In this document: piece after piece, positions 46,817 to 46,966 of the stretch
Numbering within the stretch: position 1 is the first letter of the stretch
Layout of the letters: each line of letters begins with the position of its first letter
NCBI RefSeq assembly: GCF_051903065.1
Contig: NZ_CP178438.1
Reading direction: 5' to 3' (one strand)
Source: Escherichia coli
Lineage (GTDB): Bacteria > Pseudomonadota > Gammaproteobacteria > Enterobacterales > Enterobacteriaceae
DNA length: 64,000 bases
The notes under the pieces: generated by a model
Told to the model about the DNA's origin: nothing
Database searches by the model: none
What the model saw: only the letters and a program-made list of their open reading frames with translations
Made by a program: the position numbers and the translations under genes

Positions 46817-46966
46817 ATGTTAGAGTTATTAAAAAGTCTGGTATTCGCCGTAATCATGGTACCTGTCGTGATGGCCATCATCCTGGGTCTGATTTACGGT
46901 CTTGGTGAAGTATTCAACATCTTTTCTGGTGTTGGTAAAAAAGACCAGCCCAGACAAAATCATTGA
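46817..46966 (+). CDS. acrZ: AcrAB-TolC accessory small membrane protein AcrZ (49 aa)
   Basis: ATG at 46817 gives [49 protein letters not shown]; the ORF track extends it spuriously upstream. Confidence 0.85.

Follow-up and report, generated by a model that had tools for sequence, protein, structure and literature searches.

AcrZ (YbhT, b0762) of Escherichia coli K-12 docks in the groove of the transmembrane domain of AcrB with its N-terminus on the periplasmic side, and the bend at P16 is needed for AcrB binding and chloramphenicol resistance (PMC7267776). Without AcrZ, cells become more sensitive to chloramphenicol, tetracycline and puromycin; MarA, Rob and SoxS control its gene jointly with acrAB (PMC4462101). 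KdpF and MgtS are likewise small membrane proteins of 50 aa or less, each of which binds a larger transporter and modulates it (PMC10723866; bioRxiv 10.1101/511675), but their sequences are unrelated to AcrZ and the likeness is one of mode of action only.

The locus described here lies in a window of 64,000 nucleotides, which is the whole stretch of E. coli DNA that was analysed, and its features are collected in Table 1. The segment 46817–46966 is almost certainly acrZ, read from the ATG at 46817, the surrounding 83-codon ORF being open by chance; the gene is monocistronic, with a terminator and a putative stress-activated promoter that serve it alone. The gene is already known and is correctly annotated in RefSeq, and no new biology is implied. 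Every AcrZ family feature that can be tested in silico was found.

Table 1. Positions of acrZ, its expression signals and its neighbours in the window.
Feature	Position	Strand	Description
modE, divergent neighbour	45900..46688	-	NCBIfam equivalog NF007957, E 5.8e-151
Upstream part of the 83-aa ORF, 34 codons	46715..46816	+	non-coding promoter and leader DNA, outside the protein
ccacgcaaagctgac, MarA ChIP-seq motif site for modE<>acrZ in E. coli	46732..46746	+	exact match to PMC5684230 Table 1
Putative class II marbox ACCGCACAAAAGGGGAGTGC (MarA/SoxS/Rob)	46745..46764	+	overlaps the -35 region; presumed placement
Putative -10 hexamer TAGAAT of the acrZ promoter	46783..46788	+	TAnAAT in 80/80 loci
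Shine-Dalgarno (SD) sequence GGAG	46807..46810	+	6 nt before the ATG; read from the sequence
acrZ coding sequence	46817..46966	+	49 codons and TGA; single-helix inner-membrane protein
acrZ intrinsic terminator	46974..47005	+	9-bp stem, 6 GC pairs, 4-nt loop, T-run
modA, co-directional downstream neighbour	47133..47906	+	NCBIfam equivalog NF007958, E 2.1e-152; own promoter

The first-pass annotation had read the segment as a 49-aa single-helix membrane protein, identified as AcrZ, inside a spurious 83-aa ORF at 46715–46966, and each of these points was borne out. The mechanical ORF list indeed contains a frame of 83 aa that starts with GTG at 46715 and runs on the plus strand to 46966, while translation from the ATG at 46817 to the TGA at 46964–46966 gives 49 aa. 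The hydropathy of the 49-aa protein, calculated with a 19-residue window, reached a maximum of 2.8 at residues 7–25 and fell below zero in the C-terminal tail, which together indicate one transmembrane helix. The Pfam family PF10766 (AcrZ) matched this product with 104.9 bits (cut-off, 26.2 bits; E 1.5e-30), residues 1–48 aligning to positions 1–48 of the 48-position profile, and within the 83-aa version the match was confined to residues 35–82. The protein shares 48 of its 49 residues with the AcrZ chains in the solved structures of AcrB–AcrZ and AcrAB(Z)–TolC (4c48_C, 4cdi, 5nc5, 6sgr, 6sgs and 5ng5_M), residue 1 of these chains aligning to the Met encoded at 46817. A search of NCBIfam with the 49-aa protein gave no match, which was taken as a gap in that library given the Pfam and PDB results.

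The 541-nt segment 46600–47140 is 100% identical in three RefSeq chromosomes labelled E. coli, and in one of these, NZ_CP083585.1, the RefSeq acrZ gene converts exactly to 46817–46966 and is flanked by modE and modA. The gene model is also the same as in typical E. coli and in K-12 MG1655 (b0762, 794773–794922). Length and start of the protein are as in K-12 AcrZ, and the sole difference between the two proteins is G46R in the cytoplasmic tail (A at 46952 here, G in K-12); Arg at this residue is the usual state in Citrobacter and Salmonella in the protein alignment. The helix-kink residue P16, which is invariant in the AcrZ protein alignment, is present, and every residue of the helix and all the interface residues mutated in PMC7267776 are unchanged. 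With P16 and the whole helix retained, the protein would be expected to act by the same mechanism as K-12 AcrZ. Accommodated on AcrB in this way, it would alter how the pump handles some of its substrates, among them chloramphenicol, tetracycline and puromycin. The likeness to K-12 extends to the organisation of the locus, that is, the modE(-)/acrZ(+)/modA(+) context, the SD sequence, the -10 box, the marbox block and the position of the terminator, the differences being in the loop sequence of the terminator and in the upstream codon considered below.

The start codon was examined across genera by scanning species-representative genomes with the AcrZ alignment, which gave 80 loci across Enterobacteriaceae. 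ATG occupied the aligned start in all 80, the product was 49 aa long in 76, and GGAG stood in front of the ATG with a spacer of exactly 6 nt in 75. The ribosome-binding site was inspected, as proposed with the original reading: the duplex with the 3' end of 16S rRNA was -5.9 kcal/mol upstream of the ATG at 46817, among the best 8% of window positions, against an ordinary -1.5 kcal/mol at the GTG at 46715. Translation of AcrZ almost certainly begins at the ATG at 46817 with use of the GGAG at 46807–46810.

The upstream part of the 83-codon frame showed no coding constraint. An in-frame stop falls within the 34 upstream codons in 53 of the 80 species loci, and only 15 have both an open frame and a start codon at -34. 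Among 82 aligned sequences, the segment equivalent to the extension differed in length from that of the window by -2, -1, +1 or +23 nt in 44, none of these being a multiple of 3, whereas the length of the coding segment was invariant except for two cases of +3 and one contig end. The column entropy at the three codon positions was 0.86, 0.96 and 0.88 bits in the extension and 0.35, 0.14 and 1.02 bits in the gene, and pN/pS in the 15 sequences with the 83-codon frame intact was 1.14 for the extension against 0.14 for the gene. The 34-residue extension alone had no match in Pfam. The chance of 34 stop-free codons is about 0.20 and that of the 42 codons actually open about 0.13, so the length of the frame carries no weight by itself. 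These comparisons support the view that the 83-codon ORF from the GTG at 46715 is a chance open frame through the modE–acrZ intergenic promoter and is not translated as part of AcrZ.

The reason why such an ORF appears in the window could be traced to one codon. In K-12, and in strain G3/10 as well, a TGA stands in frame six codons before the ATG, at the equivalent of 46796–46798, and in the window this codon is GGA. The G at 46796 is common to the window, E. albertii, Salmonella and Citrobacter, and this distribution implies that the upstream stop is probably a derived state in E. coli proper, the frame just drifting open and closed. In E. albertii the frame is broken by a 1-nt deletion in the AAAAGGGG tract. 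Among deposited annotations, over-extended AcrZ of 83 aa was found in E. fergusonii ATCC 35469 and C. rodentium ICC168, under the names "putative outer membrane or exported" and "putative membrane protein", and for Klebsiella, 70-aa versions of AcrZ have been called from another upstream ATG. The point is one of annotation only, namely that calling the longest ORF swallows a well-characterised small protein plus its promoter.

The conservation that does exist upstream of acrZ is arranged in blocks without codon periodicity. The strongest of these is ACCGCACAAAAGGGGAGTGCTTTTCTG at 46745–46771. Downstream of it come GGTTAGAATA, with the TAGAAT at 46783–46788, and TCTGGAGT, with the SD sequence at 46807–46810. 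The putative marbox is the most conserved non-coding block, and CGCACAAA was found 35–36 nt before the -10 box in 65 of the 80 loci; the -10 box itself is invariant in an alignment of seven taxa. The block opens with seven bases, A-Y-n-G-C-A-C, that agree with the marbox consensus, and its 3' half fits poorly. The conserved patches of the extension are best read as promoter DNA, that is, the putative marbox and the TAGAAT -10 box. The locus provides a clear case of promoter conservation passing for peptide conservation, and the two are separated by codon-position statistics.

Control by the Mar/Sox/Rob group at this position is in line with published data. In E. coli, ChIP-seq of MarA lists modE<>acrZ with the motif ccacgcaaagctgac (PMC5684230), and in Salmonella all four paralogues bind the acrZ regulatory region (PMC10268841). 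According to RegulonDB and Reg-Seq, acrZp has a class II marbox with its centre at -40.5, and activator footprints were observed there by Reg-Seq with dipyridyl, salicylate and phenazine methosulphate (bioRxiv 10.1101/2025.05.13.653802, supplement 1). acrZ is not mentioned in the supplements of PMC12052159. Neither of the motif picks derived from ChIP in E. coli and Salmonella coincides with the putative marbox block, and the placement of the marbox at 46745–46764 is our inference. The transcription start was likewise placed by motif spacing and the literature offset of -40.5 rather than by a published coordinate: with a marbox centre at 46754.5, this offset leads to 46795, which is also 7 nt after TAGAAT, and transcription is thus predicted to start near 46795. 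The acrZ promoter would then be a stress-activated one with the marbox at 46745–46764, the -10 box at 46783–46788 and the start near 46795. An mRNA beginning there would have about 22 nt in front of the ATG, and its 5' end would lie about 80 nt after the GTG at 46715. A scan with the sigma-70 consensus found no acrZ promoter, as expected for a promoter of class II that depends on an activator and has a poor -35 box. An Rfam search of 46500–47300 at permissive thresholds found nothing, so the upstream conservation is not accounted for by a known RNA element.

The proposal that an N-terminally extended, 83-aa AcrZ from the GTG at 46715 is real in this lineage has in its favour that the frame is uninterrupted in the window, in its two closest relatives and in 15 of the 80 species, that parts of the extension look conserved at the peptide level, and that gene callers gave 83-aa products for E. 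fergusonii and C. rodentium. The conserved patches, however, are those of the putative marbox, the -10 box and the SD sequence and lack codon periodicity; the extension has the pN/pS of 1.14 given above; and K-12, E. albertii and 53 of the 80 species have a broken frame. The GTG is not preceded by an SD sequence, and with the modE start codon 27 nt away, two divergent promoters would have to fit into 26 bp. Moreover, given the periplasmic N-terminus of AcrZ (PMC7267776), a charged extension of 34 residues would presumably have to be exported without a signal peptide. We consider this proposal very improbable, and the same small probability is given to a weaker form of it, in which rare transcripts from inside or beyond modE would allow initiation at the GTG at 46715 where the frame is open and yield a minor 83-residue isoform with an altered N-terminus. 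The dismissal of the 83-aa call in the first-pass annotation is sustained by the comparative data, by the weak ribosome-binding site at the GTG and by the promoter elements inside the extension.

A start two codons upstream of the ATG, at the in-frame TTG at 46811, would give a protein of 51 aa. TTG is permitted as a start codon, and it is found at this site in many loci of Escherichia, Citrobacter and Salmonella, but the GGAG at 46807–46810 abuts it with a spacer of zero, a stop lies two codons before the ATG in many genera (with one open codon in Kluyvera, Klebsiella and Pseudocitrobacter), and the Met is the first residue of both the Pfam model and the PDB chains. This start is regarded as still less probable than the GTG, and the ATG at 46817 is retained as the start of AcrZ.

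The terminator of acrZ folds with -16.6 kcal/mol; across genera the arms of the stem are conserved, and the loop varies. The modE gene lies upstream on the opposite strand in 80 of the 80 loci, at a distance of 125–130 nt from the acrZ ATG in 77, a spacing expected for a fixed pair of divergent promoters, and modA lies downstream on the same strand in 68. The gene had been described as lying divergently between modE and modA; it is divergent from modE as stated, but with modA it is co-directional. The modA start at 47133 has its own SD sequence, and, together with the promoter and the terminator of acrZ, this makes acrZ a self-contained unit. In ten Buttiauxella loci, modA was not found within 1.5 kb downstream of acrZ, with modE still divergent upstream, indicating that the linkage of acrZ to modA is not universal.

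On the modE side, the blocks GCAAAAA and TATTGTGAC at 46702–46719 show high conservation between genera; they lie 14–31 nt before the start codon of modE. A possible -10 box of modE is CACAAT, read on the minus strand. The two blocks are probably the core promoter or the leader of modE. The GTG at 46715 sits inside the TATTGTGAC block at a distance of 27 nt from the start codon of modE on the minus strand (46688), and the conservation of this GTG is probably due to its position in that modE element.

The antisense ORFs 46660–46881 (-) and 46829–46963 (-) and the ORF 46902–47111 (+) gave no family match and were set aside as mechanical ORFs. The first of these, 73 aa with an ATG start, is antisense to the acrZ promoter and to the 5' half of the gene, and it too is probably mechanical. 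The acrZ coding sequence differs from that of typical E. coli at one position only. Synonymous constraint or an overlapping element within the gene was considered in this respect and rejected, since modA and modB contain 150-nt bins that are at least as similar to typical E. coli and the third codon positions of acrZ vary freely across genera.

The segment 46600–47140 is 100% identical in only three of 5391 complete genomes of E. coli and about 94% identical in the rest, and in its acrZ the window is nearest, among the species representatives, to Escherichia sp. E1V33 and E. whittamii. The window is taken to represent a divergent Escherichia lineage. Against strain G3/10, the segment 45100–48640 contains 235 differences in 3541 nt; they are spread unevenly, with 0–1 per 150 nt in parts of modA and modB and up to 29 per 150 nt in modE, and this patchy divergence suggests recombination mosaicism. 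Just upstream of modA, CGTTATAT is present in two direct copies at 47090–47097 and 47112–47119, one of which differs from typical E. coli. The two copies resemble the ModE operator at the modABC promoter.
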